Source of the DNA: Azolla caroliniana
Lineage: Eukaryota; Plantae; Polypodiophyta
Direction of reading: 5' to 3'
DNA: 64,000 nucleotides
NCBI GenBank assembly: GCA_043228905.1
Contig: JBHGNT010000008.1
Coordinates: 2,666,001 to 2,730,000 of the forward strand
The notes below the pieces were generated by a model. That model searched no databases, had not been told where the DNA came from, and worked only from the letters and a program-made list of their open reading frames with translations. Below are positions 8,916 to 40,300 of this stretch, piece by piece. Positions within the stretch are counted from its first letter, which is position 1; each line of letters opens with the position of its first letter. A program made the translations under genes and the position numbers.

Positions 8916-11900
8916 AGCGTGGTCAAAGGCCCGCCCGGAGGAGCGGCTCTGGAGGAGCTGACGCAGATGGTGCGAGACCTCCAAATTGCCCAGACAAGGA
9001 GGGACGACAGCAAACAGCCTCGTGACTGAAGGCCTCAGGGTGGGCATCAGTGCTTGTGGTGTGACGCGATCGGCCACGTCTGGAAGGACTGCGTGGATTT
9101 CGCAGAAGCATTAAGGGCTAACGTGGTGTACCTGTGGAACGGGAGGGTGCATGCTAGCGACACTCTGAGAGGCTTAGAGCTGAATATTGGAGGAGGAGGA
9201 ATGAAGAGGCTGATGGAAGAAGTGGCGGCGTGCCACATGGAGACCATCCACTACTCAGCGTCAACAAGAATCCGGGTCGGGAGTGACGAAGGCCGGAAGG
9301 CAAAGGACTCTAGGTTCTGGCCGGTGGTACTAGAAGGCCTTGTCAGTATGCGGCTGAGGAAGGAGGAAGCGGACCGCGCGGAAAGGCGGGTCCGGGAGGT
9401 CACCGGGTGGAGCAATCCGGTAGAGGAAAAAACTAGCTTCGTGGAAGCCGCGTGTCAGAACTACAAGGTTCTGGTAGAAGACAAGCGTGCAGGGGAGGCC
9501 GGAGGAGCCGAACCCTCGCAGTGGTACAAGACCCGGTTCGGGCGGAAGCAAAATGACGCAGATACTTCCGACACACCAGATAAAACAAAGAATGGCAGTT
9601 ATTGGTTGAGCACCGAGATAGAAAGAACGACAGACCTGCGGAAGGTCCTTGAGGAATGAATCCTCGACACCAAGGTGGAGTTGTCGTTGAGGGAAGTGCT
9701 TGGGATTGCCAAGAAGGAATTCCATGACTCCATCGTGAACTTGGTGAAGCGGAAAAGGCTTTCGATAGAGCCAAAGCCAAAGCCGAGGAAGCCGGTGGAG
9801 GTGCGAACGACGCACCTAGAAGATATGGCCCTGGAAGACGAGTTGGCGGAAAGCTACTATTCGAAGCTGCATTGGGCAAGAGCCACTACGGAGACTCCGG
9901 TTTGGATCAGAGACGTCCAGGAGCCGGTGGTGACGCTGGTAGACCACGGTTTGGAGATCAACCTGATGTCTATGGACTTCTACAAGAAGGGCAAGTGGCC
10001 GATCAACACCAAGCACGGATGGAAAATACGAGTCGCGAGGCGCGCCATGGAGGAGCTACACGGGGCCTGCCCAAATGTGCGGGTGAAAATTGGTGATGTC
10101 GAGATTGACCAACACTTCTTCGTGCAGGAGACATCGTCGCATTCGGTGATACACGGAGAACCGTACATTACGGCAGCGCGCATGGAAACGAAGGTGTTGG
10201 ACAACGGTTCGGTGTACGCGCACGTGAAGAGCCAAGATTGGTGACACTCCATCCAATTTCTGACGGTGCGACCGAACCACGAGCGCAACCGCGAGACCCT
10301 CGGCAGCGAAAGCCGAGGAGAATTTTAGAGAGGGCTATCAAGGCGTGGGGCCGCAATAGTCCGGACACCCCAGAAACACCCCACACATGTACCATAGGGA
10401 GGAAACCTTGTACTATGGGTAGGAAATTTTGGTTCTCTGACAATGGACGTTGTACAACCTTTGGCATTATCGGCCGGGAGAAGAAACGGGCGGAGGGACG
10501 TCTCAGAGAGTGCAGAGTCCTGGGCCCCGACGATGAGATTGGTGGAGCTATGGAGGCGGTCTCTTTCGACGACACCTTGGGGGAATTAAAGAAGGTGTTC
10601 TATGATGGCCTCAGCGAAGACTGGACAATTCCGGTTAGTTCGGAAATGATGTACGAAGTCATCGCCGACTTCGGGAAATGGGTCGAGTTGGACCGGACGG
10701 CCCGCGTGGATACAAGGTACAAGACTGTGGACCAGAAGGTGAGGCCAGTCGCGGCACCCTTGGCGGAGGGCAACAAGTTACGGATGAAGGGGGTCGCGTC
10801 GGACCCAAGTCTACAGGATCCGGCCGGCATAGGACACCAGTTCACAAACATAACGCTACAAGAGCTCAAGGTTGGTGGGGGTGGCTTTCTACTGCCGGTG
10901 GAGGAGGAACGGTTTTAGAGAATGCTCGGGAGGCACGGGAAGGCCTTCGCATTCTCGCCGGAAGAGATCGGGTGTGTAGACCCGACGGTAGTTGAGCCGA
11001 TGGTCACTTCACGGTGCCGCATATGCCGTGGAATCTCAAACCGATTCCAGTACCCAAAGCTCACATCCTGAAGTTGATGGATCTACTGAAGCAGAAGGTG
11101 GAGATGGGCATCCTTGAACCGTCGAGTGCCCCATACTTCAATCGTTGGTTTATCGTGCCAAAGAAGAAAGGCACGTTGCGCTTTATTCAGGACCTGCAGC
11201 TAGTCAACAAGGTGACCATTCAAAACGTAGGAATCAGACCGACCATTGACGAGTTCGCGGGAGCCTTCACCAGAAGGTCGATTTACTCAGTCGGGGATCT
11301 GTACTCGGGGTACAACCAATTCCAACTAGGCGTAGAGAGCAAGGATATTACGACAATGCGGACTCCTCTCGGCCTAGTGCGGATGTGTACCCTCCCGTAA
11401 GGGGGGACAAACTTGGTAGCGGACATGGTGAATGCGATGAATAAGGTGCTAAGGGATTGCATCCTGGACATCACCATGTCGTTTTTGGATGATATTCCAA
11501 TCAAGGGATGTCCGATGGAGGGTAAGGACTTAACGGTCGGACCATATGGGTGTTGGAAATTCGTCTCGAACCACATCAAAGACTGCGAGAAGGTACTACA
11601 AAGATTGGAAGGCACGCGGCTCACCTTCTCCGGGGAAAAGTCGGTTTTCGGATAGTCAGAAATCATGTTCATCGGTCATTTGCGCGGGCCTTATGGCCGG
11701 AAACCGTCTCTGGCAAAGGTCGAAGCCATTTCCGCAATGAAGGAGGAATGCAAATCGGTAACGGAGGTGCGGAGGTTCCTAGGGGCGTGTGCGTTCTACC
11801 ACATCTGGGTTCAGCATTACGCACACATCGTAGAACAGCTCTACGGGCTGCTAAAGAAAGGGCGCAAATTCGACTGGGGCAAGGAACATACGGAGTCGGT

Positions 11901-12013
11901 TCGGAGATTGAAAGAAGCACTTAACACGGCACCGGCAGTCTGTAAAGTGGTTTACGGCAAGGACATTCCGATCTATGTAACCGTAGATACGAGCCCGACC
12001 GGAATAGGATGGG

Positions 12014-12629
12014 TGTGACATGATCGTGTGTAGACACGAGCGCGGACAGAGATGCTAAGAACAACTTGCATTTGGCAGATAAGTTTCTATTAATCAATAT
12101 ATGCACGTAGCGCTGTGGGTGATTCAACCGGATTAGTGCTGATGGTCGAGCGTAGGCTCTACAGTAGTCAGATACAAAGTGGAGTATGCACACAGAAGGT
12201 CAATCCCTGGTCGGGAGCACTCGGGCGTCTGACGCGAGCCGAGGAAGTGCCTTTTGGTGATCTCTCGTAGGACTCCTTGTCTGGTCTTCTCTCTATTCCC
12301 TTTTTTCCTCTCTCTTACTTCCCCAAAAATGACATCCCCGCAAACAGTCAAATGTCGCCCCCTTTATAGCACAAGGAGCAACCGTTACAAGGCATTCATG
12401 ACTTGTCACTTTCCCTTCCTAGATTCTCCCCCCTGATTCGCTCTCCTCGTAACTCTCCCTACTTACGCGACGTCTGAATCCCTATTAATGCCTTAACTAC
12501 CTAGTACACCTCCCTCTACCTATGCCTAGTACTTACACTATTTAATTCACTAGGGGTGTGCACTCGTGCACACCAGTGCTCCCGCGCGTTTCACCTTGTT
12601 TCTACCTATGGCCTGGAATCTTCAAGACA
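12014..12629 (-). repeat. 3' LTR of gypsy C (616 bp)
   Basis: TGTGACA...AGACA termini with adjacent PPT (TCCAACCCCAC on +). Breaks the B reading frame exactly at IGWV. Confidence 0.85.
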
Positions 12630-13588
12630 TCCAACCCCACTAAACCGCACATACTCCGTTATCTGCTGGGCAGCGATTTTAGTGAGAGATTCCGGGCCAT
12701 ATGCTACTCGTCCTCCCCTTCTAAACCGACCCTTTCGGCTCCTGGGTCTGGTTCCGCCTTGCTCCGCCTCTTGAAGGCCTTTATCCGTTTCCCGACCACC
12801 GGAGTCGTCATTCGGGTCCCGTCGAGCTCCGCGAGATGATACGTCGCGTTATCATTGACGCTAATTACCACGTATGGCCCGAACCATCACTTCGCGAACT
12901 TACGCGTAGACCTATGCTGGTTGTCGAGGCTGCTATCGTAGACCAACACCCAATCGCCATCCTCGATCTTCCTTGGCCGGAGCTGGTGTGTTCGGTCGAA
13001 CCGGGCCTTGTTTCGGATTCTCGCTTCTCTCACCCTAGCCGTGGCCCGCTCCACGTCTTCTGGCCTTCGCTCGAGCTGCCGGATTCGGGCCGCTAGCAAT
13101 TCTTCTCGGCTCATTTCAGCATATGACATCTTCAATCAAAAACTTACATACTACCGCGGTGGTCTTGTTCATTAGTGCTCGGCCCTCTACCTGATTCATT
13201 AGGTCTTCTCTAGCCAGCACCAGATATCGCTTTTGACCCTCTCCTATCGACATCGTTACCAAGTCGACCATCCATTTGAAGTGCACGGTCGGGGGGTATG
13301 TTGGGTGCAGTTCGTCGCAGTGTCGAACCACCGAGTGCATCTAGCAGCTTTCGCACATGGACACGAAGTCGTGTACGCTCTTATACATACTCGGCCACTA
13401 GTATTTCTCCTTTAACTTCTCGAATATGGCCCATGTACCCCGGTGTCCAGACCAAGGGCTTACGTGGAACTCTGATATTAACTTCTCTTGATCACCCGCT
13501 CGCGCCATTACTCGGAGCGGAGCGTCGTGTCGCCTTTTTGGGACCCTCCAAATTTTTCCGTTCCGTAGGAAGTATCAATATGCCCTTT

Positions 13589-13983
13589 TGTAGAAAGTAA
13601 CGTGCGGAAGCAAGTATGAAGACCGAACAGAAGGAAGGAAACTCAGGTTTAATGGAGAGCTTGAGCTTACACGGTATACGCGGGAGAGATAGAGAGAGTG
13701 AGAGAGAAGACACAAAAAACTATATTCAACAATAATACTCAGTCTGTACATAAGACGTGCTCAGTGAACACTTTTATACAAGCCCTAGAAGGACTGACCG
13801 AAGTACGGACAATACTTCAATGCTCATCAAGAGCTCCTACACTAACTCCCAAATATATTCCTCACAGAATATCTTTCCTAACGACCTCCCGGTTTACGCA
13901 CTCGGCCTAACCGATCGGTCCCAACCGATCCGGTCCTCGGCTTCTTCAGCCGAACCGGCCGATGTTGAGCTTGTCTCTCAACA
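13589..13983 (-). repeat. Copia 3' LTR
   Basis: TGTAG...TCAACA; 11 substitutions versus the 5' LTR by manual comparison. Confidence 0.97.
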
Positions 13984-16900
13984 CTCCCCCTCAAGCTCAA
14001 CTTGAGGCTCTTCGGGATCCTCGGGCACATAGCTCCGATTCCTCCTGGCTTCACGCCTCGCTCGCGCTCCTCGACCTATTCGACTCCGCGCGCTTCAACC
14101 CTTCCAGTCGGCTTGTCTGCTCATGCGGCCCTTAGCTCTTCTGTTGTTGCGGTGTTGACGCTTCTCCTGCTGCCTTTTCTTCCGCTTGGGCCTCGATTGA
14201 TTCAGCGTGTCTGAATCAAACATCCAAATCGACTCGGCTACTTCCGATCAGTTTTCGCTCTCGTCCGAGTTGGTTGTCTCCAACTTGTCTTCGGTCTTCT
14301 CGTCCTCGATTGCATCATCTCCCCCATGCGTGGTTGGCATCGGCTCTCTCCTTCGGCTACTCCTCTTCTGTCCGCTTTCGGACTTTTCCGTGGGTCCGCC
14401 CTCGGCTTCTTCAGCCGATCCGAACTCGAACTCGACAATCGAGTCTACCGACTCGGACTCGGTGTCACGGTCTCCGCTCCTTTCCTGCTGCCTTCCTTGG
14501 TCGTTCAGGACTGTTCTCCCCCTCAAGTTCGGCACATCGAGGTGACACAACCCGAGCGCACCTGAGAATTGTCGCAACTTGTCCAGACCAAGCGGCTTTG
14601 TGAAGATGTCGGTAGTTTGCCGATCCGTCGGCACGTACTAAAGTTCGACTTCACCGGAAAGGACACGCTCAGAGACGAAATGGTAGTGCACCTCAATGTG
14701 CTTGGTCCGTGCATGGAAAACGGGGTTCCTCGCGAGCTGGATGCTGCTGAGGTTGTCGCAGTAGATCGTCGTCGGATCTGACACCTCCACTTGCAGATCC
14801 TTAAGTAGCCGCTTCAACCATATGGCTTCGCATGTCACGACAGCCGCTCCTCGGTACTCAGCTTCGGTGCTCGACAGTGCAACTGTCGGCTGCTTCTTAC
14901 TGCACCACGCGATCGCGGCACTCCCGAGGGAGAACACATATCCGGACGTGGATCGGCGATCGGCGGCGTTGCCAGCCCAATCAGCATCAGTGTAGCCGAC
15001 TAACTGCGCGGCTGCACCGGTCCGATATAGCAGTCCCCGGTCCTTAGTGTCATTGACATACTGAAGTATGCGTTGCGCACACTGAAGGTGCTCCTCGGTA
15101 GGTCGCACCATGAACTGACTGATCACCCCGACCGGATAACTGAGGTTAGGTCGGGTGATGGTCAAGTATATGAGGCTTCCGACAATTTGTCGGAACCTCG
15201 TCGGGTCGCATACCTTTCCCGTATCGGGACGAAGCTTGATGGTTCTGTCTAGAGGAGTCGAGACGGACTTACAGTCGGCCATCCCGAGTTTGAAGAGCAT
15301 ACCCAGCACGTAATGACGTTGGCTGATCAATATGCCTTCGAGGGTACGGATCACTTCGATCCCGAGGAAGTAATGAAGGTCCCCCAGATCCTTCATGTCG
15401 AATGATGCCGCAAGCTGGAGCTTCACGCGGTCGATTTCACCTAGGTCAGCACCGGTGATGACCAAGTCATCAACATATAGTAAAATACTAACCGGTCCGA
15501 GTCGACCTTTCCGGATGAACAGGGAAGAATCCGAATTTGACGAGACGAAGCCCATCTGATGTAAGTGCCACCCCTTGGCCGCGGCTACTACGAGCAAAAC
15601 ACGGACGGTCATCATTTTCGCGACCGGCACAAACTTCTCATCGTAGTCGATGCCATGTTTCTGCGCGTAGCCCTTTGCCACTAGCCGAGCCTTGTACCGG
15701 TTGACCGAGCCATCGGTGTTGTACTTGACCTTGTACACCCACCTACACCCGATCGGTTTTACCCCCTTCGGTGCCTCAACCAAGTCCCAGGTCTCGTTCT
15801 CCGCCAATGCGTGCATCTCTTCCTCCATCGCGGCACGCCAATTCGCATCTTTAGCCGCTTCTGCGTAGCTCTCCGGCTCACGCACTTCCGCTACACGGGT
15901 CATGTACGCATAATGATGCGCCATGTACTTGTTGTATCCGAACCGCAAAACAGGATTCTTCTGGCGGGTAGATCGGCGTAATCTCACATTAGCCGATGTC
16001 GAGGCCTTCTCGGTCAACGCGGACTTCACCTTTAAAGTCCTGTCACCGGTTCCCTCGGAGTCGGACTCGTTCTTATCCGTGCCGGAATCCGACACCTTCT
16101 TCTTCCCTTTCTCTTTGCGCGTAAGCCATCTCCTTAGCTTCCTGCGCGGGGAATGCACGGCCGAGTCTCCACTACTCGCCGGCTCTTCATCGGACTGATC
16201 GTACCGACTCAGTCGTCCAATCGGTCCACTTAAGCAGAGTGAAATCGGACTCTCTTCGCGGGTCTCGATTTCGGGCTCATCCGGAGGCATCTCGGCCTCA
16301 CTGACCTCATCGTTAGAACACGGATTGGACTCGGGGTTCGGAGTCGGGGGCTTGTACCAGGACGCGGACTCGTCAACCACAACGTCGCGGCTAACACGCG
16401 CTTGTTTGGTGCGAGGGTTATAGCACTTATAACCCTTCTGCTCGTCCGAGTAACCGACCAAGATGCATTTCTCGGCCTTTGCGTCCAGCTTCCTTCTTTT
16501 CTCCTTCGGTACATGCACATACGCAATGCTACCGAACACCCTCAAGTGTCGTAAGTTCGGCTTCGTTCCGAAATATAGCTCGTGCGCTGACACTTTGTCT
16601 CCGATCCGGTTCTGGATGTATACCGCGGTCCTTACCGCCTCGGCCCAGTAGAACTTGGGTAAGCTCTTCTCCTCCAGCATTGCCCGTGCCGCTTCCACAA
16701 CTAACCGATTCTTCCTCTCAGCCACGCCGTTCTGCTCCGGCGTGTATCTACAACTGAATTCGCGGCGAATTCCCATTTGTTGTAGATAACCGTTGAATTG
16801 ACCAGAAAAGTACTCTTTTCCGCCATCCGACCGCAAGCACTTGATCTTTCGTCCTGTTTCCGTTTCCACGAACCCTTTGAGGTCACGGAAACAGTCAAAG

Positions 16901-18619
16901 ACTTCGCTCTTTCTCTCAAGGAGGTAGATCCACGTGTGCCGCGTGTGGTCGTCGATGAAGGAGACGAAATATCGGCTCCCGCCAAGACTAACGTTTTGTG
17001 TCGAGCTTATTCCGGCTCCGGTTTCGCTCGTTGGGGAAAGGAAGTTGGTGTTGCTTCCCGAGCTGGCAGGCTTCACAAATTTGTGCCTTTCGACCACTAA
17101 ATTTGGGCAATCCGAACACTACCTGTTTCAATTCCAGATCTTGAAACCACTGGTAGTTGACGTGGCCTATCCGCTTATGCCACAAGTCGATGTCCGACTC
17201 GGTTTTTCTTCCCTTCGCGAACATTGCGGTGCTGCCGTCAGTGGAGTCGAGGATGAACATCCTCCCGTCTCTGCGCCCTTGCGCAATCACACGGCCTTCT
17301 TCCTCAATGAAGCACCCGAGGTGTGTAAACCGAACCTCCATCCCTTGGTCGACGATCTGTCTGACCGAGACCAGGTTTTTCGTGATTGTCGGAACGTGCA
17401 GCACGTTCATGAGTTTCCCTTTCTGTCCGACATGGCTAAGGGGAACTTCTCCGACATTCGCGATCGGATGCGGAGTGTCGTCTCCTGTTGCGACTACTCC
17501 ATTTTGTATCGGTTTTTCAAGGTACGAGAACCACTCCTTATGGCTCGTCATGTGGTTTGACGCGCCGGAGTCTACGTACCACACCTCGTTTGATCTCGGG
17601 GTGCTTTATTTCATTGAGTTTGCTTTGTGTCTCGTCACGAAGGCAGACCCTTCTCCGACTCTCCCGGAGTCTTCGGCGTAGTGCGATTGCTGCCAATTTC
17701 CCTTGTCGGTATGTCTGGAGCCGTTTCTCTCCGAATCGGCGCGCTTCTTCCAGCACTCACTTTCCCTGTGGCCTTTCTTGCCACAGTACCAGCACTCCGC
17801 GATGGCCTTCCCTTGCCGGTTCTCATCGCTTCGACTCCCCCTATTTCCGGAGGGTCCGGAGTTGCTGTCGGCATCACTTCGGTGCCTTCTTCCTTGATCT
17901 TGTTGGCCGCCTCCATTGCGTGCCGACTCGCCTCGTCCTCCACGTCCACGGGGCCTATCTCCCTCCGTGTACAACATTCTGTTGTCGGTGTGCGTGCTTG
18001 TAGACGCACCCGCGTGGTTCTCCTCTACCAGGAGCATCGACTGTAAGTCAAAAAAGGACGGCGTATTCTCCCGGGTACACACAGCCGTTCGGAACGCTCC
18101 GAACTTCGACGCCAAACCTCCAAGACAGATCTGAACCATCTCGCTCTCCTCGATGTTCACCTCTATGGAGGCGAGGGAGTCGCAGATATCCTCGATCTTC
18201 GAGGTATAATCCGCCACCAACAAGTCACGTTGTCGTAGCTGGAGTTTCCTGGTTGTGGTGCTCGCGGCGAACATCTTCTTCAGATTTTCCCACGCACCCT
18301 TCGGCGTCTTTGCATCCCGAACATAGCTCAATAGTTGTTCGCCCACACAAGACGCGAAGCAGTACAATACCCTGCTCGCCGATTGCTCCCACGACGGGAA
18401 GTCTTTGTGTGTCGATTCGGGTGCCGCGTCATTAGCTCCTTCGACATAACTCCAGTAGCCATGCCCAAGCAGGTACTGGTGCATCTTGTAGGACCAAGAC
18501 GCGTAGTTGGTTCTGTCGAGCTTCTCTGTTGGAAGCGAGCTCGCCATGCCTCTATCCATCATTCTTCTCGTTCTTCTTCGTCAAGTTGTGTCGGCTGCAG
18601 AGAGGTTCTCAACCCTCGC

Positions 18620-18631
18620 GCTCTGATACCA
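18620..18631 (-). promoter_or_regulatory. Primer-binding site complementary to initiator tRNA-Met
   Basis: TGGTATCAGAGC immediately after the 5' LTR. Confidence 0.95.
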
Positions 18632-19026
18632 TGTAGAAAGTAACGTGCGGAAGCAAGTATGAAAACCGAACAAAAGGAAGGAAACTCAGGTTTAATGGAG
18701 AGCTTGAGCTTACACGGTATACGCGGGAGAGACAGAGAGAGTGAGAGAGAAGACACAAAAAACTATATTCAACAATAATACTCAGTTTGTACATAAGACG
18801 TGTTCAGTGAACACTTTTATACAAGCCCTAGAAGGATTGACCGAAGTACTGACAGTACTTCAATGCTCATCAAGAGCTCCTACACTAACTCCCAAATATA
18901 TTCCTCACAGAATATCTTTCCTAACGACCACCCGGTTTACGCACTCGGCCTAACCGATCAGTCCCAACCGATCCGGTCCTCGGCTTCTTCAGCCGAACCG
19001 ACCGATGTTGAGCTTGTCTCTCAACA
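18632..19026 (-). repeat. Copia 5' LTR
   Basis: Direct repeat of 13589-13983, adjacent to the PBS. Confidence 0.97.
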
Positions 19027-22000
19027 CCTTTTTCAGATCTGTCCCGCTTCCTCCCTAGTCATCGAGGCGTCTGCCATCATTGTTTTTAGAAATCTTCCGA
19101 TTAGAAGCTACTCCCCATCGTAGTCTTCTTCGTCGAATTCGTTCAGGGGCGGAGCGCTTCGCCCTTTTATCCTCATCCTTGTTGATTCGAAGAAGTCCGC
19201 GCCGACTTCTTCGTTTTCTGATACCATACCGTCCTCATCCTCGAACCGCTCTAGAAAGCATATCATCCATGGCGTTGTCTTTACCCAAGATGTGTCATAT
19301 CTCTGGGTTCAGGGACTTGATGTACGCAATCCACCTGAGCATGGCCAGGTCGGGAGTTGCACATTCGGGGACCATACTGAGAATCGGCAGGCAGTCCGTT
19401 TCTATAATCACTTCTATCCCGATTAGGTAATCTTTGTCGACCTTAACCGCCGAAACGATACCCCATAGCTCGCGCTTGACTTGGGCGTATCCTCATTGTC
19501 GCTCGCTTAGTACCTTCGCACCGAACCGGATAGGGAAGCGCGTGCCATCTTCGTCCTCTTGATTTACGACCCATCCGATCCCGGTCGGGTTGGTGTCCAC
19601 CGTGATTTAGACCGGAGTTCCTGGTGCACATTCTACTCTGCGAGATCTCTGATTGTCCAAAGGCTAATTTTTCTCCCGAGAAGGTAAGCCGCGCATCTTC
19701 GAGCCTCTGTAGTATCTTCTTGCAGTCGGAGATATGGTCTGTGACAAACCTTCGGCACCCATCCGCGCCGATCGATTCATCCTTGGTGTCCTCCGGACAC
19801 CCCTTGATAGGGATATCGTCCAGGAAAGGCATGGTGATGCTCGGAATGCAGTCCCGCAAGATTCTGTTCATTGCATTCACCATGTGTGCCACTGAGTTGG
19901 TCCCTCCCTGTGGTAGGGTACACATTCGAACTAGCCTGAGAGGGGTTCGCATTGTTGTGATGTCCCTGCTTTCCACAGCCAGCTGGAACTGGTCGTACCC
20001 CGAGTAAAGGTCTCCGACTGAGTATATGGACCTTCCGGCGAAGGCTTCCATGAACTCATCGATCGATGGCCCAACTCTTGTATTGCGGATGGTCACCTTG
20101 TTGATCGGTTGTAAGTCCTGGACGAAGCGCAACGTACCGTTCTTCTTTGGTACCGTAAACCACCGGTTAGAGTAAGGGGCACTCGATGGTTCGAGGATGC
20201 CCAACTCCACCTTCTGCTTAAGGAACTCCATCAACATTGGCATGTGAGCTCTTGGTACTTGAATTGGTTTGAGACTCCATGGCACGTGCGGCACGGTAAA
20301 GATCACCATTGGTTCAACAATGGTTGGGTCAACACACCTGATCTCTCCCGGCGAGAATGCAAAGGCTTTCCCGTGCCTCTCGAGCATCCTTCTGGACCGG
20401 TCCTCTTCCGCCGCTAGTAGGAAGCCACCCCCACCAATCTTCAGCTCTCGTAACGTTTTGTCGGTGAAACGGTGTCCTATGCCGGCCGGATCTCGCAAGC
20501 TCGGGTCGGTAGCAACCCCCTTTATTCGTTCCCAGCTATCCTCCCGTAAGGGGTCCGCGACGGGCTTCACCTTCCGGTCCACAGTCTTGTACTTGGTGTC
20601 TACTCAGGCAATCCAATGTGCCCTGGTTTTTCTTTCGAAGTCCGCAATGACTTCATACATGTCAACCGAGTTGACCGGTATGACTCGGTCTTCGCTTAGG
20701 CCTCCCTCGACTACCTTCCTGATTTCTCCAAGGGTATCATCGAACGAGACCGCCTCCACAACTTCCCCAATCCCTTCGTCGTGACTCAAGGCTCCACACA
20801 CCTTTAAGCGTATCTCGGCCCGCTTTCTTTCTTGGCCATTGATGCTGGCTATTGTACATCCGCCGTTGTCGGAGAACAAAACTTTCCTTCCTAGTTTACA
20901 GATGTGGGGAATTTTCCGGCTATCCGGACTATCGTGGCCCCACGCCCTGATAGCCCTTTCTAAAAATCCGCCTTCTCGTTATTTCCGAGGGTGTCCCTGT
21001 TCCGCTCGTGATTCTTCCGAACGATCAAAAATTGGACAGAATGACAGCCATCCTGACTCTTTACCCTTGCATAGGCTGAACCATTATCCAATACTTTCGT
21101 TTCCATTCTAGCCGATGTGATGTATGGTTCGCCTAGGATGACTGGGTGGGAGGACGTCTCTTGCACGAAAAAGAGTTGGTTTATATCGACGTCTCTGATG
21201 CTCACCCTAACGTTCGGGCAAGCCCCATGTAGTTCTTTTGTGGCTCTTGTAGCTGTGCATATCTTCCACCCATGTTTGGTGTTGATCGGCCAATTCCCCC
21301 TTTTGTAGAAGTCCATCAACATCAGGTTAATTTCCAACCCGTGGTCGATTAATGCCACCACTGGTTCCTTCATGTCCCCGATACGAACCGGGGTTTCTAT
21401 AGTCACTCTTGCCTAGTGCGGCCTGGTGTAGTAGCTCTCCGCAAGCTCAACTTCCACGGCCATCTCGTCGAGGACTGCCGCCCTTACCTCAATTGGCTTC
21501 TCGGGCTCCGGCTCCATCGCGTGACGCTTTCTCTCCACGAGGTCCACTTCCCTTAGTGTGAGTTCTACACGACTGTCGAGAACTCGCTCCTCTAGAACCT
21601 TTTATAGGTTCGTTGTTTTCTCAATCTCCGAGCTTAAACGGAAGCTCGGAACCTTGCCCTTCTCCTTCTCCTGTGGCCCGGTCGGAGTGGCATCATGCCT
21701 TTTCGGCGTGCTTCAGGTGTCATACCTCCCCGAAGGACCTGCTCCCCCGGTTTTCCCCGCTCGCCTTTCGTCGATCAGGGCCTCGTAGTTCCTACACGCA
21801 GCCTCCACAAAGCCAGTGCTCTCCTCAACGGGGTCGCTCAAGCTGGTAACTTCGCACACACACTCCTCCGCCCGCTCCGCTTCTCCCTTCTACAGCCTTC
21901 CTTTGGACAAGGTCTCAAGAATAACCGGCCATAACCCAGGGTTTGAATCGGGTTTGGTCGCCCTTTCGCCTACGTGGATGCCGGCCGAAGCCGAGTAGTG

Positions 22001-22334: not shown

Positions 22335-22950
22335 GCAGATACACAGAAAGAAAATAAGAGCAAGAAACAGGAATCTGATTACTATGATCAGTAGCTTACA
22401 ACTCGAACAGTTCCAACCAGCAACCCGGTAATGGACCTGACACGGGGTCCTACTCACGCACATAGACGATAGCCACACAACTCGAAGAAACAAAAAAAAG
22501 GGGGGGGGGGGGGGGGGGGGGGGGGGTGGAGAAGAGAGAGAGAGAGCCTCTGTTGGAAGCACACGGGCTGTCCATGAAGCAGAGGCAGCGAACGACGATC
22601 GGAAGAGAGAGAGCTCGGCCCTCGGTTCTGCAGCAGCACTTCGTCCTTGCCAACGCGCGATCCCTTTTCTTCCTTAAATAGTCCTTAAATAGTTCCCTTA
22701 AATAGTCCTTAAATAGTCCTTAAATAGTTTGACTAGAGACCCTTCTTCCCTAGTCAAATCGCTTTATTCCATGTCCCTTTCGATAGAGATACGCGCAAAT
22801 CCCCTAATAAATGTGTACTACCTAGTATTTACATCAGCCGACCTAATTATGAATTATGTCCAAAATATCAATTCTCGCGTCCGCCTATGTAAGAGCCGGT
22901 TCATGCTCCTTTTTCTTCGATTCCACCTATTGCCGGTTTTCTTCACGACA
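22334..22950 (-). repeat. Gypsy LTR upstream of gag of copy C, itself preceded by a PPT and ~100 bp of 3' internal sequence (22951-~23055)
   Basis: The minus strand reads GGTGGGGGTGGA|TGTCGTGAAG at 22950 and ends ...TGCA before a (CT)n tract. Left boundary inferred. Confidence 0.75.
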
Positions 22951-23057
22951 TCCACCCCCACCAAACCGCGCATCCACCGGCATGCACCAGAGACGGGTAG
23001 ATACCGAAGAAAACCGGCTTTAGTCGTCGGTCTTCGATTCTTCGCCAGGCCCAGAAA

Positions 23058-23893
23058 TTGTGTTGTGGCAAGAAACAAGGAGAAGTTAAGGATAGACACG
23101 ATTTCCCGACATCCTTCCTTGCACATCTTGAGAGAGCCAAAAAAGAAAAGAATTGTCGCTTAGTCAAGGCGTACGAAATTGAGGAAGATGGCTCCTTCAA
23201 AAAATTTAGCCACAAAAAGGATATTACGAGAGATCTTTACTACAACGTGGTTTGCGGCGATGTCGTTGACATGATCCAAAAAGTGCCAAAGAAGGAATAT
23301 ACGCTAATGATTGTTGATATTCCATATGGATTTCGAATGGAAGGGTCATCATACAACGATGAACCATTTAGGTTTAAACAGTTAGAGAAGATGGTCAAGG
23401 ATTTTGTTGAGCTAACGACCACATCCTTGTGGAGGATAGTTGTCTTTCATAGTATGGACCAAGGGTACTCGGTAGCTCAAGCTTTGAGATCTCGTTGCCA
23501 TGGCATCGAGAACCTTGCATGGTAAGGATTATTTATATGTCTCATTCACTATATTGCCTTTCTTAAGATTGTTCAATCGATTCTTAACTCGATGTAATAT
23601 TTGTTATAGGATAAAAACCAATGTCAATAGAGGGCCAACCTTTCGGTTCGTAAATGGCATCGAGAACCTTGCATGGTAAGGATTATTTATATGTCTCATT
23701 CACTATATTGCCTTTCTTAAGATTGTTCAATCGATTCTTAACTCAATGTAATATTTGTTATAGGATAAAAACCAATGTCAATAGAGGGCCAACCTTTCGG
23801 TTCGTAAATGCCATTGAATACATTACGGTTGGCTACTTCGATGAAATAAAGAAACAAAGAATCAAAAGTCGAAGGGAGGATGAAGTGACGTGA
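23058..23893 (+). pseudogene. Fragment of a beta-class amino (N4-C/N6-A) DNA methyltransferase-like gene with spliceosomal intron(s)
   Basis: NVVCGDVVDMIQKVPKKEYTLMIVDIPYG fits the IxxGDxxxxLxxLPxxSVDLIxTDPPY start of N6_N4_Mtase. Splicing GT-AG 23522-23609 gives LAW-IKTN...RFVNAIEYI, matching the WxK...F...EYI motif. No ATG and no FxGxG motif seen. Confidence 0.7.
23500..23810 (+). repeat. 154-bp tandem duplication (88-nt intron plus 66-nt exon)
   Basis: ATGGCATCGAGAACC at 23500 and 23654; copies are near-identical. Confidence 0.95.
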
Positions 23894-25134: not shown

Positions 25135-26565
25135 CCGACGGAAAGTGAAGAAGGTATAACTTTCCTGCACTACCGAAGAGGCAAATGATCGCGACACGTA
25201 ACGTGATTGTTGAGGCGGTCGAAGTCCAGGCCATGTAAGGTTCTCAGGATCGGTCGGTACAGTCGGCGTCCCGCTCGGCACATAGGCCTTCGGGGTTATG
25301 GATGCATGGAAGGAGTCGATGGGCAATAGATAGAGTGAGCCGAGCCCATGGGACAAATGTTGTCCAGGCGGCCCGGGCTTGGGAGTGTCTGCCCGGACAA
25401 TTGCAGTCCTGACCATCGACCACCCATATGTCCGCCCACGCCCACGCCCACCCCCACCCCCCACGAACCAATCTCTCTTGGAGGCCTATATGGTTGCTTG
25501 GCAGCCACCATAGATCCCACATATGTATGTATGTATGTATGTTCTGATGAAGCATCCATCCATAGCCATGGGAGCCATGGTCTCACCTCTCCAACGCGCC
25601 GTCCATCCATGATTCCATCCATCCATCCATCCACTCACAGGTATCTATCCATCCATCTCTCTCTGATCTTTAATCTGATTTTCCCTCCCTCAAATCTATC
25701 CACCATTTTGGTGCATAGGGCGTGCTAATCTTTTCGTCGGATTCACGTTCATGTAAACACTTCATATCTCTCCACATAAATCACTGTTACTTCTTACTTG
25801 GATCTTTCCAAAATCACACGCATCTAGTAATCCTTACATATATGTATCTTGTGTCAACGTCTCTTTTGATATTTGCACACACATGCATGTCGTAATCCTC
25901 ACTTATACCACGTGTTAATCCGTCATTTGATCTTGCCACTCACATTTATATCTCATAATCCTCACATATATGATGTGTTAATCTCCCTTCAATCATTGTA
26001 TCTTTTCGCCTTTTTTTGGTTTGATCTGACAGGTTTCATCACATATCTCTTAATCCTCACATATATGATATGTTTATCCAATCTTTGATCTTTTTATTTC
26101 TCCATCTTTTTTTCCTGTTTGATCTAGGTAAGTTCCATGGCATACCTCTTAAACTTCACATATACAAGTTGCGTTAATCCTTCCTTTACTCTGTGTATTT
26201 GTTTTCCATGTTTTCTTGATTTGATCTGTGCAGCTTTCACTACATATTCTTTTTATTCATGTCTTGAGAACATGAGTTAAAGAAGATTGTCGTTGTTAAT
26301 CCTTTCCTTAACCCTTGTATCTTTCTTTCCGCCTTCTTTTCTTAGGTAATCTATTCAGATTTCCTCGCAGATTCCTTCCGTGCACGTTATAAGAGACGTA
26401 TAAGAAATAGTTTGTCTTTATTCTTCTCATATTGTCTTGGAAACTAAGAGAAGAAGACGAAGAATATTGCCTTGTTATTGTCAATCATTTCTTTAGTATT
26501 CATCTATATTTTTTAATCCGTGCAGGTTCCATTGCATATTCTCTTTGCTCATATCTTGAAAAAGC

Positions 26566-29500
26566 ATGAGTAACAGTACTAGAAGAAGCTCATCTTTCAA
26601 AGTTCTGCCTAGAAACAGTCCTGGCGATGGCGAGCTTCTTCATCACTACGAAGACAATGGAACCATGGCTGCAACAACGAGAGGAGATGGTCCTCACAGG
26701 AGAAGGAACAGGCAAAAGAGCAAGAAACTCGGTCTTTCTCAAACATCTATTCCTCTAAAGTTAGGCTTAGATCTCAGTTTAAGCCCAGATTTACTTGGAG
26801 ATGGATGGTATGATGGAAATTTGCACACATCTTTGCGTCAAGGTAGATGTTATGATGGAAGTATGTCTGTCGTTTCTACTCCTGAACAAGGACTAGAGAG
26901 CTCTGAAGGATTTCTTCCTGTCAAGGCTAAAGAGGAAGTTAAGCCAAAACAGAACCTCCTTGTGAAGGCGGAAGATGAAGTTATGCCAAAACAGGAGCTT
27001 CTGGTGAAAGCGAAAGAGGAGCTTGTTAAGGTCACTGGTGATCATGTAAAGGCCAAATATGAACTTGTTGAGTTGAAAGATGAAGTTGTTAAAGCTAGAG
27101 ATGATTTTTTAAAGCCAAAGAACTTCATTAAGCCAGAAGATGATTTTCTAAAGATGAAAAATGATCTTTTAAAGCTTTTTGGCCATGAGTCTGAATCTGG
27201 TTCTACCAATATACAGCTTAAAAGTAATGATCCTATTGATCTGTCTTCTTGCTTGACGGTAGACTCAAACAGTATATGCACACCAAACTCCACAATTAAT
27301 GGAATATTGGTATGTATGATAACTTCAGATGCTTATGCTGATGGAGATACATTTTAAGAGTAATTCATACTGACCTGTATGCATGGTGCAGTTCAGTATC
27401 CTTTACTGAAGGATATGCATATTAAGAGTAATCCTCACCTAAATTTATTTTAATCGCATGCTAAGAGCATTGGTAATGCATGGTGCAGTTCTTCATCCAT
27501 TACTGAGGGAAATACATGTTAAGAGTAATTCTCACTGAAATTCTCATGCTAAGAATATTAGTGTCTATAATGAAATTCAGTTTCCTTAAGGGAAATGCAT
27601 GTTAAGCATAATGCTAACCGATCTTGTTTTAAATACATTTTCAAAAGTGTACTTATAACGTCGCAAATCTTGAACCTTTATTTAATTGCATCTTAAGAAT
27701 AACCCTGAATATTTGCAATCTGGAAACTTAATCTAATTGCATTGGTTCAGGATTTGAAAAATAAAGACAGTGCTATCATAAAGAATCAAGATTTGAGTGT
27801 GGAAGCATCGTTTGTTGATGCTGTTGCTCGACAGTCTTCATTTGGTGATAGCGATGGATATAACTTCGATATTACTTATAAAGCTCATGTATCACCAGGT
27901 ATTCTTCTATTTTGAGGTTGCTCAATGTATTTCATTTATTTTGAAGTTTTTTGTAGTATCAATTTATCCCTTCCAGCAACCAACAAACAGTTTTGTCATG
28001 AAGTCTGTTTGCATGACACTACTGCATTCATGAAATAGTACCATTTATTCTACAACATTGTTGATTACATGAAAAAGCAAGAAATTATTAGCTGCATATA
28101 CACAATGAATTATCCAAGATCATCTGCATCCGATATACATGATGAAGAGTTGCATTGATCATCATTGGAACATGAGTGGCAATTTCTGAAGTTGGATGAG
28201 CAGGTCTATTTTGAACTATATTGCTTTTTATTTCAACAGCTATGCTTACTTTACAGCATCAAATCCACTCTCGGTCTAGTTTTAAGTGAAAGGTTCTGAA
28301 ATACCCCTTGATTTTTTATTATTTTCCAAACTTTGGTTAACCTCTGAAAGAGAGAAAAAAGGGATGAATTAACTGTGCAATTGCTTAAACAGCACATGTA
28401 ATTGAGAAAGGAAGGATACTTTGACATACTTGCTCAAATAGCACATATAATTTCTTTTTGCAGTTGACCAAGGGCATTCAGGAAAATAAAGGAACTGGGT
28501 ATTTCAGAGTTTTTCTATATTTGTAGTGGCATAATTATGCATAACAGATTGTTTCAGACCTCTTTGTTAGGTACTGCTAATACACTGCCAATCTCATTAA
28601 CCAACCATATACTAATCATAGTGTTAGGACCAAGAGAATAGTAGCAAAATGCTAAGTTGGGCCAATCTTTGTAATCTTTATTTGGAATACAAATGTAAAA
28701 CCATTAGAGAATACAACATGGAACCAACAAGTAGAGAATACAATGTAAGACTGAGAAGAATAGTGGCAAATGCTAAACCTGTAGATCTACATGGTAGTTG
28801 CCTTCACTACGTGGAAGTTTCATGATGCTAGATTGGATCTTTGATACATAGTAAACATTGATTAGCAGATATACGTGGTTATCACTGGGCACTTGAAAGT
28901 ATGTTCAAGTTGAGTGACCTTCTGTAATGTTTTTTGTTTCTCTCTTGGAGGAGGGGGAAATTGGAGGGTGAAAGCTAGCTGTCTGCTATACTGATTTTTA
29001 TAAAAGGACCTTTTTTTTCTATAATTGTAAGTTTTGTTCTCTAAAATTATTTCCAATGTGTCTTATTGTACTTCTTTAACTGCATGAAACATGTTATAAT
29101 TCTTATCTGCATAGTCCATGAATGTCTTATTGTGCTATGATATTTATTGTACTGAGGTTTCAAGTCATTTTAAAAGCAGGTCCTGCACCAGTGATTGTAT
29201 CACCATTTGATTATTTTGTTGGTGAAGTTCTACGGTCATCTTGTACCTCACAAGTACAATCTATTGAGAATGACAAAAAACGGGAACATGTCTACAACAC
29301 AATGTTCCATGTGCCCTGGAGATGTGAGTTGGTGGGTTCTTTTGAGCTACAATCATTCGAATTTGGATAAATGGGGGATTTGGGCACATTGGTTAATCCT
29401 TTCTCTGTGTCCACTTATTGCAGCTAATAATTGTAGGGTTCTTTGTTTGCTTGGATTCATTTTTGACATTGTTGACCATCATGCCTGTGAGGGTCTGCAT

Positions 29501-34353: not shown

Positions 34354-37270
34354 TCAAGCATCATCACAGCGAAGACTTAATAGGTCTACAAGTATTCCTC
34401 GTAATGTTTCTAAGTTGAGTGGTCCTAAGAGCCTCTTCCCATTGTTTGAAGTTAAATCTTCCGTTCGGTCATCCTCTGCCTTTAGACCTGCCTGAAGCCA
34501 CCAATTGATGCAATATGCTTGAACATCAAGTGCAGCAAAAAGAACAAAGTCCTCCTTGTCCTTGATATCGAAGGAAATGCTCAACATATTCCTTCTTACC
34601 TTCAGACCCATGACCATTGCCTCCTCATATAACCACCTTGCCAGCTGTATTGCAAGCTGAACATCCAATAAACGCATTGGTATGATGTAAAATTTGTCAA
34701 GATTTATACTTGTAACAAGATTCAATGTTCTAAATTATTATGTGAAGACAATGTAGATAAAATGGTGAATGGATGGTATTACTTCTACTAAGTTGGGTAG
34801 ATGTTCTTATCAAGTAAAAAGGGTGGAACAAATAAAATGTTTAAAGATCAAGTAAATAAATGTCGAATATTGTGGTTCTGATGGAGATCAAGATGTTCAC
34901 ATATAAAATAAAACACTCGCTTTCTATATTCATCAAACATACAATCTAGTTTTATATATCTATCACCTATGAGAAAATCTGTATAAATAAAGTGTCCTTC
35001 GAGTAAAGTTAATGACAGACTTTTTATACCCACCATTTATACTTTGATGCAGTTGATACGTGAAACTTTACAGAATTGACACCTCATCACTCTCATGTTG
35101 GTTGTGAATAACTAATTGGTGCTTTATCGTGAAGAAGTATAAAAGATCTCTCATATTCCATGCACAATCTATGTCAGTCCAGTTCTATTGATGTTTCTAT
35201 AATTAATTTTACATGTATCACTAAGACTCATTAAATTTTCACTTGGGTCAATCATTGAGTAATAAGTATAAAAACATACAACATTTCGCTTGGTGAAATC
35301 AATGTAAATTAAACAAGACATTACATTATTTCAATATTTCCTATGGATTATGTATATGCTTTAAGGCTAGAGGGAATAGAAAGTAAAACTTATACCTGAT
35401 ATAGAAGGAAGCCTGGCAGCTCAGCCAAATCACATCTATGTTTGGATCGTTGGAATACACTTGGAAGTGAACCTTCTGGTATGTCCATTGATTCTACACC
35501 TTCTACGAAAATAGAAGTGTCATATACAAGAACTTTGAGTTGGAACTTTGTTCTACCTTTCTTCTGTGCTTCGGCCCACCCAACCATGCTCATCTTCCAT
35601 CCTTGTACTAGTGGTTGAGGTATCTCCAATTTAATCATCCAAATTGTGAGCCTTGCATTCCAAGTAGGATGAAATAAGAGAAATAGGTAAGGAACTCTGC
35701 ATACCTGCATTATGCACACAAACTAGGCAAAATGATGTCTGGAAAGAAACGGAAAAGAAATCAATGACTTTCTTTGAGGATGATTAGCTACTTCATTGTT
35801 TATTATTTTCAGCCATGGGATAACTAGTTTAGACTCATTTGATTGAATGCAATCATGATCAAATGGATCTACACTCAGAAGGGACAAACAAATCCTGCTA
35901 GTTTGGCAGTTTAAAATCACTGTAAGATATCTCCTGTCTGAACATTGCATTCATTAAGACTCTTGAAGTACTGTTTGGACAGTTGAAAGGGCTAGTTATC
36001 CTTCTTGTTTTATATTTTGCTTATGATCTCTATTTCGAGCTTATACACATTTTGCATAAGATGGTATATACTATCATACCTATTTTGTAGTTTGAAAATA
36101 ATGATAAATGAAGCAGTGAGTTCTAATGTGGCTAATGAACTATTACGTAAAAGTCTCAACTCTAAACAGTAAAAGAGCAAGCATTATTATCATTTAGATA
36201 AAAAAGTATTTGTGAAGGATTAGAAAATAAAGGAATTTACCAATTTTTCTAATTCTGAGAGTACTTTAAAGCTGAAGATTCGATGACGCATGGTCAACGC
36301 AAAGTATTTCAGTGGCGTGATACCTTCAACAACCACCAAATCTTGTGAAGCACTGATTAAGGAATCTCTCAATTTTGTCAACATCAAAGCTCCATCTGTA
36401 GTTCTACTCTGGTTTGCTTTGGATGTTGGATATGGTGATGACTCCGGTACTCTAGGGCATACAAAAGCACTTTTATAGAAAGCCTGGTGTAAACATACCA
36501 TTGCACTCATGTCAGCCAAGAAGTTTGTGCATTTCTCCTTTGATTGCTCACCATGTCCTTGTGCTTTGAGATTAGGTTCTTCAGATTTGATCTCCTCATA
36601 ATTCAGCTCATTTTTTATCATTTTGGATTCTTCAGTCGATTTATCATTTTTGTTTATCTTTGAAAGCTTTAAAACAAGGGCACATGAATGTCCCAAGCTG
36701 AGTCGGACACTGTTCTCGTTAACACCAGTGACGACCAACCCAGATGAAGATAACAAACCTTCTCTAACTGTCCATTCAAAAATCTGCATTAAGTGCAGAC
36801 AGGTGTAAACAAATTAGATTCACAGCAAAAAGCTATCAGAGAAATATTATGCATTCCTTCAAGGGAAAATTTGGATAATACCTTAAGAAACACCTTATAT
36901 CGACAATACACCTTATCTATTGTATTAGATATAATATCTCCTAGTATATTGTATTAGAGGAAATACAGATACTACAGAGAATATTGACAATACACCTTAT
37001 ATGTTGCATTAGGTATAATACCTCCTAGTATTTTTCTAATTATGAATACCTACCCCTCGCTAAAAAGTAACAACATTAATCTTCCCATTCTATTAACAAA
37101 ATACATTTAAGCCAAACATACTGATCTATTAATTTCCATGGCATGACCTTTGAAAAAATAAAAAATGCAAAACGTTAGCCTTTGTGAAATGAAAAGATTT
37201 ATCTGTTTCTTGGTGGTAATGCACACATTCTCAACGTTACTTTCTGACCAGTGGTATTATTTAGTTTCCC

Positions 37271-37319
<49 letters not shown>

Positions 37320-40300
37320 TACCTGCTCTTCAACTAGAGCCATTTGGATGCGTCGAAGCACTGAGTGAGCTGCAATTGCCCCTTTACTGACAGCATCTCC
37401 AACATCTTTTTCACTGGAAACACTAGGTTTCCTCTCAGTTCCTATGGCATCGCCATCACGTACAGCTGTATCAGATGATATTGTAGCCAAGTTATCCTTC
37501 GAAATGTGGTTGTGAGGGATATGGGGCCCAACAAAGTGAATGTCAATGGTATTAATGCTATGGCTTGGGATATCAGCAATGAGTAATCCAGTCGAATCTT
37601 GTTCAACGTTAACAGAATACAAGCCAGCTGATCTTGCTGACAACCCAGCCAGCATTTCTATTGGCATTTGTGGATAAGTCAAGTCAATGGTGAAACCCGC
37701 ATTCCCACCTGGACCTGCTGAAATGCCTCGGAGTCTTTTTACTTTCCAATGCTGCTGAAGCCTAACTAGCATTTAAAGAATTCAGTATAGAATTGAATTG
37801 TGCAAGAAATGTACTGCGAAGACGAAATGAATATTGTTAACTTTATTGGGTAAGGGATGAAATTCCTTCCAACCCTGCAGTAATATACCTCATAAGGGCT
37901 CCATAAAATATGGCTTCTCTATCAACTTGTTGCTCCAATGCTTTTGCAGTTTGTTTCAAATATTTTCCAATTTTCTGGAGACAAAGAGAAGCAATGAGCA
38001 GTGAATCTAATAAAAAATGCATATTAACAAATATCATATAGTTATGTAGAGTATGAAGCTATATAGTTGTATAGTTATATAGAATACATTGAGCATTATA
38101 TAGTGTATGTAGTTATATATAGTTCTATAGAGTATGTAGGTACATGTGTACAGATTATGTAACTACATAGTTGTATAGGTTATGCTGTTACCGTGATCAT
38201 CAGAACAGACCTGAAGACAGGAAAGAAGTTTTGACGAGAATTGATAAACATTATTGTTGAAATGAATTGATAAACATTTTTCAATACAATTCCAGTCATA
38301 GTGATACGAGATTTTTCCCCATGTTCATAAAATAGCAAAATATTTTCACCCGAATGAAAGGGAAGGAGATGCTGGCCCAAAACTATGAAACTAAATCCAC
38401 TGCAACGGCTCACCACTAGAAAATGCCTTTGGTTTTGTAATAGTAGCAATCTTCCATGGGAGGATAATGAAACGGGGAATATTCATCCTTCACTACTGTT
38501 AATTTCGAATTTTGTTCTGTTTTTACAGACAGTATGGGACTGATCGAGAAACACAAATGGACATAATACAAAAGATATTGCTGAACATTCTTTCCCCCAT
38601 TAACAAGCTATCTCTTTCTTTGTCACATAGTTCACACAAAGAGCAGGCAAGTTATGAAAGAAACAAATCAAGATTCTAAAATATATAATTGTAAAAGGCA
38701 GATTCAGAAAAAATCCATTGTAGTGCAACTCACAAGGAGAGTAAATAATAACCAAAATACTGCATGTGTATATGTAATGTCTATATATCTATATTCATAA
38801 ATACAGTGTACAGTGCATTCCAGTACCTTAAAACTATGTAGTTTTGAAGCTGCCCGCAATGCTAGCTCTGAGCAAGCCTCATGTAATAACTGTTTTGGTT
38901 TCTGCATACTTGCCACAGTGATAGCATCATTTGCTTCAACCTGTCAATATATTCATCGAAATTTTAAGGCATCCGTGATCACAGTAGAATCCAAAGAAAG
39001 AAAAATAAATTAACATCTTCTTAGAGACCGAAACAAGAGATTACATCTGGAAATGATGTCTTATCTTGGAAAACAACAAATATAAACACAAATAAATTAG
39101 TAAAGCATCGTGAAAGAATGATTCTCACATGAGTAATGAAGTCCAAAATATAAGAAAGTTCTTGTTGGGCCATTTGCAGATTCTCAACGAGTCCCTGCCA
39201 CGGCCATTTTGAAGATGCCTGTGCAGCAGCCTCTTTGGTAGTTTTAGCTTTCTTTGCATCCTTCTCCTCTGCACATCCAAAATCAATGCGTTGTAGAAGA
39301 AAACGCAATTTCTCCTCTGGTGTATGTTCACTGCCGATTAATGAATGAAATGAAAAAGTGTCTATATATTAGATATGCTCATCATACATGGGAAGACTTC
39401 TTCTATAAAATAAACTAAAGATTGATATATAAAAACCCTTCACCGTATCTGAGTTGAGAACAACCATCTCCTTTTTCTCTCCTTTCAAGAATTAATGAGA
39501 AAAAGGAAATTCATGTGTCTGCCTACAATCAATAGGCACATAGACACATATACCAATTATGTGAACTGTGCACATCAACAGGAAAACATTTGAAACCAAA
39601 GTAGTCTAGCTTCTTATGTTAACAAATCATGTGTGTGAGAATCTAGAAGAAAGAAAGAAAGAAATCTTAATGTCTTTTAAAAGACTAAAATAGCCTGTAA
39701 GACCAAACAAGAGCTTACATCTTAAAATACTGCTCGACTTTGAGCGCAACAAACCAAAATAAATGTAATTAAGTAAAAAAGTAAATAGAAATAGAAGAAG
39801 ATGTGACTAAAGAATCTCATCATCTATACAAGTAAAATGCTCTCAAGTCAGATATATTGTAATTTTTGTCTTTGAAAGGTCTCTAGCATAGGTCGATCTA
39901 GAATGGAGAGATCTCCGAAGCAAGGGAAGCACCTGGATGGCAGGACATAATGGCCTTTATTTGTTGATGACAAGGGTGGTGAGATTATGGTCGACGAGGC
40001 CAGGGCCTACATGCACGACAAACTGCTATTGCCTGATATATTGTAATCCCTTTGCAATGTCCTGGTTGGGAGTCCATTTGTATAGCCCTTGATTGTCTTG
40101 TAGCATGTGTAGGAGTGATGGACCTAAAAAAAGTTGGCATTGTTCTTTGTTGATGAACTTGTGCGGTTGTATTGTTGTCTTCAACAACATCTACTTTTTT
40201 ATTAGAATGTGATTTTATAACATTTGCCAAGTGACCCAAATATGTCCTAGAAGCTCTCAAGAGAGCTATTGCATGAAAGGGAGCTTTATACCAACAAAGA

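Follow-up and report, generated by a model that had tools for sequence, protein, structure and literature searches.

The described system closest to the gene reported here is the Sola1-1_Ec32 transposon of the brown alga Ectocarpus, which, according to the part of the report available to us, has an opposite-strand accessory gene encoding a ParB-like domain and an N4C/N6A methyltransferase (1,104 aa), AAC-starting termini and a 4-bp duplication, and for which self-marking of the element was put forward, as a proposal only (PMC12477816). Sola elements, according to the available text of a second source, have a DDD transposase and make 4-bp duplications (PMC10741241), and the Sola1 entry cluster_4009 of the fern Cibotium barometz is given with AACAC termini, a 26-bp TIR and a 4-bp duplication (PMC12973397, Table S2). 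For Plavaka (EnSpm) PAG2/PAG3 of Bostrychia, the accessible part of a preprint describes a giant DNA transposon with a methylase of PF01555, a ParB-like domain and tandem inverted-repeat arrays that are proposed as ParB sites (bioRxiv 10.1101/2025.02.11.637652). Outside this architecture, and again as far as the available parts of the sources go, DN4MT1 and N4CMT are eukaryotic beta-class amino-methyltransferases of prokaryotic type (bioRxiv 10.1101/2021.02.12.428880, PMC8885841, PMC10406627), LTR and DIRS retrotransposons that carry DAM, a prokaryote-type adenine methyltransferase, are reported with more 6mA and more transcription (bioRxiv 10.64898/2026.05.21.726589), and land plants are said in a review to have few N6A-methyltransferases (PMC4738411).

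Here, we follow up a feature in a 64-kb stretch of DNA from Azolla caroliniana (the window, to which all coordinates refer unless a locus is named), which a first-pass annotation had read as a broken, intron-containing fragment of a beta-class amino-methyltransferase at the edge of a retrotransposon nest. That annotation took it for a long-resident eukaryotic gene, possibly transposon-borne, and for one of the rare eukaryotic acquisitions of the N4CMT and DN4MT1 kind.

Results

The window feature at 23053-23865 is a broken scrap of a transposon accessory gene and not a host gene. Of the five exons of this accessory gene it retains the third and the beginning of the fourth, and it is cut at both ends. 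Its parts are as follows.

22577-23052, minus strand: high-copy repeat adjoining the left break of the fragment, with very high summed depth
23053-23054, plus strand: remnant AG of the intron 2 splice acceptor and left break of the fragment; homology to the related loci L001 and L002 begins at 23053
23055-23521, plus strand: exon 3 of the predicted ParB-methyltransferase gene, encoding a linker, motif IV and the strands after it
23316-23327, plus strand: putative catalytic motif IV, DIPY, which aligns to the DPPY of M.MboIIA and CcrM
23500-23807, plus strand: 154-bp tandem duplication (23500-23653 / 23654-23807, 99% identical), of which relatives carry one copy
23522-23609, plus strand: first copy of the GT-AG intron within a Trp codon (GT at 23522, AG at 23608-23609)
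23676-23763, plus strand: second copy of the intron, inside the tandem duplication
23764-23865, plus strand: 5' part of exon 4, broken before the stretch with YQKP and DLFSGTG (motif I)
23866-23893, plus strand: foreign DNA outside the gene, read through to a TGA

The translation with DIPY that had been quoted is present in the ORF at 23001-23525, the frame of which encodes ...YNVVCGDVVDMIQKVPKKEYTLMIVDIPYG...LWRIVVF...ENLAW, and exon 3 has 89% amino-acid identity to that of L002. Left of 23053, relatives carry on with intron sequence and the window does not; to the right, contigs of intact copies continue in exon-4 sequence past the position matching 23865, and the homology of relatives is confined to 23053-23865. 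Within the 64-kb window, the start, exons 1, 2 and 5, motif I and the transposase are all missing, in agreement with the earlier view of a broken family member that lacks a start and the SAM-binding motif.

The intron in the Trp codon is real, since its splice sites are kept across the 39 loci in which both sides could be located while the donor-acceptor distances (77-113 nt) fall in all three phases; the donor reads TG/GT in all 39 and the acceptor AG/G in 38. The 154-bp duplication runs from the end of exon 3 through the intron into exon 4, so that the intron and the exon 4 start are present twice. Consequently, the ...FVNAIEYITVGY that had been placed after the 23521/23610 junction follows only the second acceptor (23763/23764). 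Both splice paths remain in frame up to the TGA at 23891-23893. No spliced contig was seen in three sequencing runs, two of them presumed to be RNA and one unlabelled, a result that has no bearing on expression.

On its own, the fragment had no significant match in Pfam or the PDB, and the profile and structure check that had been suggested gave a result only through the exons of relatives, a family profile and a Ginkgo model. Matches of the fragment alone to centrin were set aside as chance, and a comparison with longer proteins found none, which is weak evidence because a profile search later recovered them. The family assignment is instead made through the relatives, namely 75 protein clusters at 65-90% identity, most of which end at the Trp-codon intron, and downstream exons that score above the PF01555 cut-off.

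A search for fuller copies gave 68 DNA loci related to the fragment, all belonging to one narrow set of records, and their flanks may be chimeric because many of them are collapsed assemblies of repeats. They define a gene of five exons, with an exon 1 of ~560 aa, a short exon 2, DIPY in exon 3, YQKP and DLFSGTG in exon 4, and exon 5; intact copies encode a beta-class amino-methyltransferase joined to a domain of predicted ParB fold. In summed contig depth the exons exceed nearby unique flanks by a factor of hundreds, which is not a copy number. The gene is far from the rare acquisition that had been supposed: it is high-copy in the A. caroliniana genome and has relatives across streptophytes. 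A profile search of a representative protein library returned 131 proteins, and among the 20 that were looked up, 11 had species names, namely Chara braunii, Riccia sorocarpa, Diphasiastrum complanatum, Adiantum nelumboides and Ginkgo biloba. Five protein models were seen for Ginkgo. In a tree the window copy stands next to L001 and the vascular-plant sequences group weakly (82/76), but with 34 rows, no outgroup and neither P0205 nor DN4MT1/N4CMT among them this tree cannot separate vertical from horizontal spread.

Exons 3-5 are whole in 32 of the 68 loci, 29 of them without a stop and three with one. The dN/dS of exons 3-5 had a median of 0.029 and a maximum of 0.077 in the 20 usable of 136 pairs among 17 representatives (the other 116 were saturated or had a dS under 0.05), and the ParB core gave the same median (4 usable of 78 pairs). 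Judged from these substitution rates, the catalytic exons are under strong purifying selection.

Some gene models and loci have unusual structures. The 1,825-aa Chara braunii protein P0136 has two ParB-methyltransferase units in tandem in one gene model. Models from Diphasiastrum and Adiantum (P0090, P0182) join the methyltransferase exons to cytochrome P450 or Copia integrase, and these fusions are likely annotation artefacts over inserted elements. In L002, a copy that breaks off in exon 1 is preceded by an ORF (1253-2074, minus strand) that lies between repeats and looks short-chain dehydrogenase-like by eye.

The methyltransferase class named in the first-pass annotation was borne out by the relatives. 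All five scanned ORFs of relatives that contain exon 4 passed the PF01555 cut-off, and the Ginkgo protein P0114 matched this family at 7.6e-18. The order of motifs in the relatives is that of the beta class, with motif IV (DIPY, exon 3) before motif I (DLFSGTG, exon 4), and DLFSGTG lies downstream in 33 of 45 matches; the paralogues therefore carry both the motif IV and the FxGxG-type motif whose joint absence would have spoken against the assignment. A profile of the family made from 46 sequences matches M.MboIIA (5e-10), CcrM (6e-10) and also M1.HpyAVI, and more weakly the rotifer N4CMT (0.005) and M.PvuII (0.04). In the AlphaFold model of P0114 the methyltransferase part is mostly above a pLDDT of 90, and Foldseek matches it to CcrM (1e-13), with the 4mC enzymes (the rotifer enzyme and M.PvuII) at 4e-10, so that N6-adenine enzymes rank first in both the profile and the fold matches. 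The canonical (D/N/S)PP(Y/F) form of motif IV is not what the family carries: DIPY, which varies at position 2, is the commonest form among the fetched relatives (74 of 142 matched), followed by NIPY, DAPY, DIPH and DVPY, and no DPPY or SPPY form is among the 25 commonest motifs. This variant lowers confidence in activity but not in the fold.

The N-terminal part of the intact protein was missed in the first-pass annotation, as was the 154-bp duplication. The exon-1 core is predicted to have the ParB-N fold of the ParB/Srx superfamily. Its model, of middling quality (pLDDT 67), has ParB, Noc and KorB as top Foldseek matches (best E value, 3e-4) and also matches sulfiredoxin folds, and VIA-align gave a Z score of 9.2 for PadC (rmsd 3.3, 100 aligned) and 8.1 for a ParB-N domain (rmsd 3.1, 103 aligned). 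A Pfam scan of the relatives' ORFs gave no ParB match. The ParB stretch of the relatives reads GGSHSAEARR and is without the arginine patch, which we take in its canonical form to be the motif of CTP-hydrolysing ParB.

The suspicion that the gene might be transposon-borne proved right, as it lies head-to-head with a DUF7869 transposase gene inside AACAC inverted repeats. In tblastn searches with the exons and the transposase, a transposase was reached in 10 of the 68 loci, head-to-head in nine and downstream in one (L050). Most of the other loci stop too early upstream for a transposase, and L002 and L018 have unrelated DNA there. The transposase ORF is ~830-920 aa long and the three that were scanned all matched DUF7869 with an E value of about 1e-52. 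Seven of eight transposase ORFs have the candidate Asp motifs DGMDQ, QLDN and GHTHDHID at constant spacing, which we presume to be the catalytic Asp residues of a DDD transposase, and the eighth is truncated. The transposase profile had no match among solved structures in the PDB.

A repeat of ~35 bp is present at 26 ends in 23 loci with unrelated flanks, and 22 of these 26 ends begin with AACAC. L013 has this repeat partly, inverted at both ends, and L040 contains a whole element of 7,724 bp that interrupts a Gypsy frame and is flanked by a perfect 4-bp duplication. Both ends are also present in L046 and L057, with no matching target duplication, so that one of the three two-ended contigs has one; the element size is roughly 8 kb. 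The carrier may be called a Sola1-like TIR cut-and-paste transposon because of the 4-bp duplication in L040 and the AAC-starting termini shared with two published Sola1 entries, and a CACTA, Transib or Helitron origin was dropped on account of the AACAC inverted repeats and the same duplication. Two contigs have a further peculiarity. L050 is rearranged: its methyltransferase and transposase genes stand in tandem and a left-type terminal repeat comes after them, as would result if one half of the element were inverted. L057 has a big array of direct and inverted ~570-bp repeats (10950-15592) directly past the right end of the element.

Between the methyltransferase and transposase genes, and between two divergent promoters, lies an array of the palindrome TCGATRC-N3-GYATCGA. 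Of 21 loci examined, 18 have it upstream of exon 1, in up to 14 copies, and only one (L009) has it anywhere else. Its exact form is missing from the other three upstream regions, including that of L006, which has an intact transposase, and there is none in the 64-kb window. The core of the palindrome is kept across subfamilies with different flanking letters. The palindrome spacings fit a 10.3-bp period, a score that none of 10,000 random sets reached in either of two controls (36 locus-spacing values, 22 of them distinct, with four near-duplicate loci left out).

The window copy is a dead, truncated and decayed fossil. Compared with L001, 30 of its 468 bases are changed, and C>T/G>A differences affect 13 of 67 CG/CHG sites compared with 2 of 137 CHH sites (p 1e-5), where the direction of change is assumed and L001 is a collapsed contig; such CG/CHG-biased change is the pattern expected of a decaying copy silenced by 5mC. 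The retrotransposon nest that had been noted is present as a Gypsy/Copia nest to the left of the fragment, and it may have broken the methyltransferase copy. The repeat at 22577-23052 is 60-75% alike to other retroelement leaders of the window (120-521 and 12584-12658). Together with an RVT_1 ORF at 19446-20603, this suggests that it is probably an LTR or leader belonging to the neighbouring Gypsy element. The nest also contains a Copia element (13589-19027) that is inserted in a Gypsy element and has 396-bp LTRs of 97% identity (13589-13984 and 18632-19027); other Gypsy relatives are at 409-4726 and 9050-12015.

The 154-bp duplication may be an assembly artefact, as no contig joint with it was seen among the matches listed. 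That its two copies differ by one mismatch speaks for a young and real event. Further short tandem duplications are found at 49224-49507, 61187-61523, 42289-42427 and 45656-46105 (periods of about 139, 165, 70 and 158 bp), two of them 97-99% identical. They are common in the window and reflect either real events or a trait of the assembly. Elsewhere in the window, an intronless 416-aa ORF (58782-60032, plus strand) has a VQ motif (PF05678, 1.4e-9), and two minus-strand stretches contain what we take by eye to be host-gene exons, Mediator-subunit-like at 36220-37772 and for a biotin carboxyl carrier protein at 62947-63351. Imperfect 36-bp repeat arrays at 25820-26179 and 27338-27621 flank a 265-aa ORF (26560-27357) with a short coiled repeat.

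Discussion

We give a probability of roughly 60% to the reading that the fragment is what remains of a dead copy of the second gene of a Sola1-like cut-and-paste transposon, and that the intact protein likely binds the palindrome array and would methylate its own element, helping the activity of the latter. The ParB-fold and helical region would bind the phased array between the two genes, and the fused methyltransferase would then mark nearby element DNA, more likely on adenine. Such methylation could keep the element active, either because the divergent promoters are favoured or because silencing by host 5mC is blocked, and for this the accessory gene would have to be expressed and catalytically active in intact copies. 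We lean towards 6mA because motif IV begins with Asp and because of the order in which the matches rank, and the base is not settled since the rotifer 4mC enzyme and M.PvuII match the fold too; we would put the chances at about two in three for 6mA, about one in four for 4mC and about one in ten for an inactive binder. A broader proposal, that an ancient streptophyte transposon lineage extending from Chara to ferns and Ginkgo, and amplified to high copy in A. caroliniana, runs a parS/ParB-like addressing system, in which the ParB-fold domain loads on the phased array, together with self-writing of 6mA (or 4mC), is more tentative, and we would sooner bet against it than for it.

The same protein could instead aid transposition, by binding the array and bending or bridging the element while (hemi)methylation times transposase expression or the pairing of ends. 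ParB folds spread on and bridge DNA, and Dam methylation plays such a timing role for bacterial insertion sequences. The helical phasing, which turns every site to the same side of the helix, and the location of the array between two divergent promoters would fit this role as well. However, the array is internal and not at the element ends, and its exact form is missing in three of 21 upstream regions, one of them next to the intact transposase of L006, and we therefore regard an aid to transposition as rather unlikely compared with self-marking.

Still less probable is a methyltransferase domain that has lost catalysis and shields the element solely by binding DNA or flipping bases. The non-canonical motif IV, with no DPPY or SPPY among its 25 commonest forms, would suit such a module, but N-I/L-P-Y supports activity in rRNA adenine methyltransferases. 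From ferns to Chara, moreover, the family has kept its catalytic Asp, the Pro-Tyr and the DLFSGTG that binds SAM, and the dN/dS of the catalytic exons is as low as that of the ParB core. A precedent for loss of activity does exist in DIRS1, for which inactive transposon-borne methyltransferase domains are described in the available part of a review (PMC4738411).

We consider it very improbable that the gene is a domesticated host 4mC writer that acts genome-wide in gametes, like Marchantia DN4MT1 or rotifer N4CMT, although it shares the Pfam family and the beta order of motifs with them and has annotated gene models in Ginkgo (five proteins), Riccia, Adiantum and Chara. Those two enzymes carry TSPPY or SPPY, which the ParB-methyltransferase family does not, and the family profile scores N4CMT at 0.005 compared with 5e-10 for M.MboIIA. 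A host writer is further disfavoured for the A. caroliniana genome by the multi-copy state of the gene and its location inside TIR elements. The first-pass annotation was right in taking the intron as an argument against contamination, but the gene is cargo of a transposon and not a long-resident gene of the host. Bacterial or phage contamination or a chance resemblance can be dismissed, for although the Adiantum relative has methylases of phages and bacteria as its nearest Atlas clusters, the spliceosomal introns are conserved, the neighbours are plant retrotransposons and the relatives are annotated in plants.

Enzymatic 6mA or 4mC in land-plant DNA is disputed, and to our knowledge the 4mC of Marchantia sperm is the one established case. 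The family offers a candidate writer and, in the TCGATRC-N3-GYATCGA array that separates two promoters, a defined target as well; its many live and dead copies are internal controls, so that the idea of self-marking proposed for the alga could be tested directly with long reads from one plant. If true, the broader proposal of a parS/ParB-like addressing system would mean that land plants have a transposon-encoded anti-silencing mark at the DNA level, and that amino-methylated DNA in their genomes has a real enzymatic source.

In the literature that we searched, we found no land-plant account of this architecture, although Iyer 2011, the Repbase reports and the bioRxiv supplements may contain one, and no match for DUF7869. 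CcrM, M.MboIIA, M.RsrI, M.BceJIV and M1.HpyAVI, which have motif IV before motif I, are the best profile and fold matches, but the transposon family has about 20% identity to the N6-adenine methyltransferases, carries DIPY for DPPY, is spliced and fused to ParB, and has no restriction partner. DN4MT1 and N4CMT are described in the available texts as 4mC-writing host genes with TSPPY or SPPY, N4CMT having a chromodomain, and transposon cargo status is described there for neither (bioRxiv 10.1101/2021.02.12.428880, PMC8885841, PMC10406627). The DAM-carrying elements are retroelements with Dam-type enzymes, and the accessible part of that preprint mentions neither Sola nor ParB (bioRxiv 10.64898/2026.05.21.726589). 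Plavaka of Bostrychia belongs to another transposase superfamily and, in the part of the source available, has methylase-SET and ParB-2OG oxygenase proteins in separate genes (bioRxiv 10.1101/2025.02.11.637652). The Cibotium cluster_4009 TIR diverges after the first five bases, and a methyltransferase/ParB cargo is unmentioned in the main text as available to us (PMC12973397). Sola1-1_Ec32 is, by its described architecture, the closest parallel, in place of the N4CMT and DN4MT1 that had been suggested. As described in the available part of the report, it differs in being 21.5 kb long with 282-bp TIRs and AACCG ends, compared with ~8 kb, ~35 bp and AACAC here, and in coming from a brown alga and not a land plant, with no phased palindrome array mentioned there (PMC12477816). 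The architecture as such is thus already published for the Ectocarpus element, and the kind of system to which the Azolla gene belongs is known, as a proposal.
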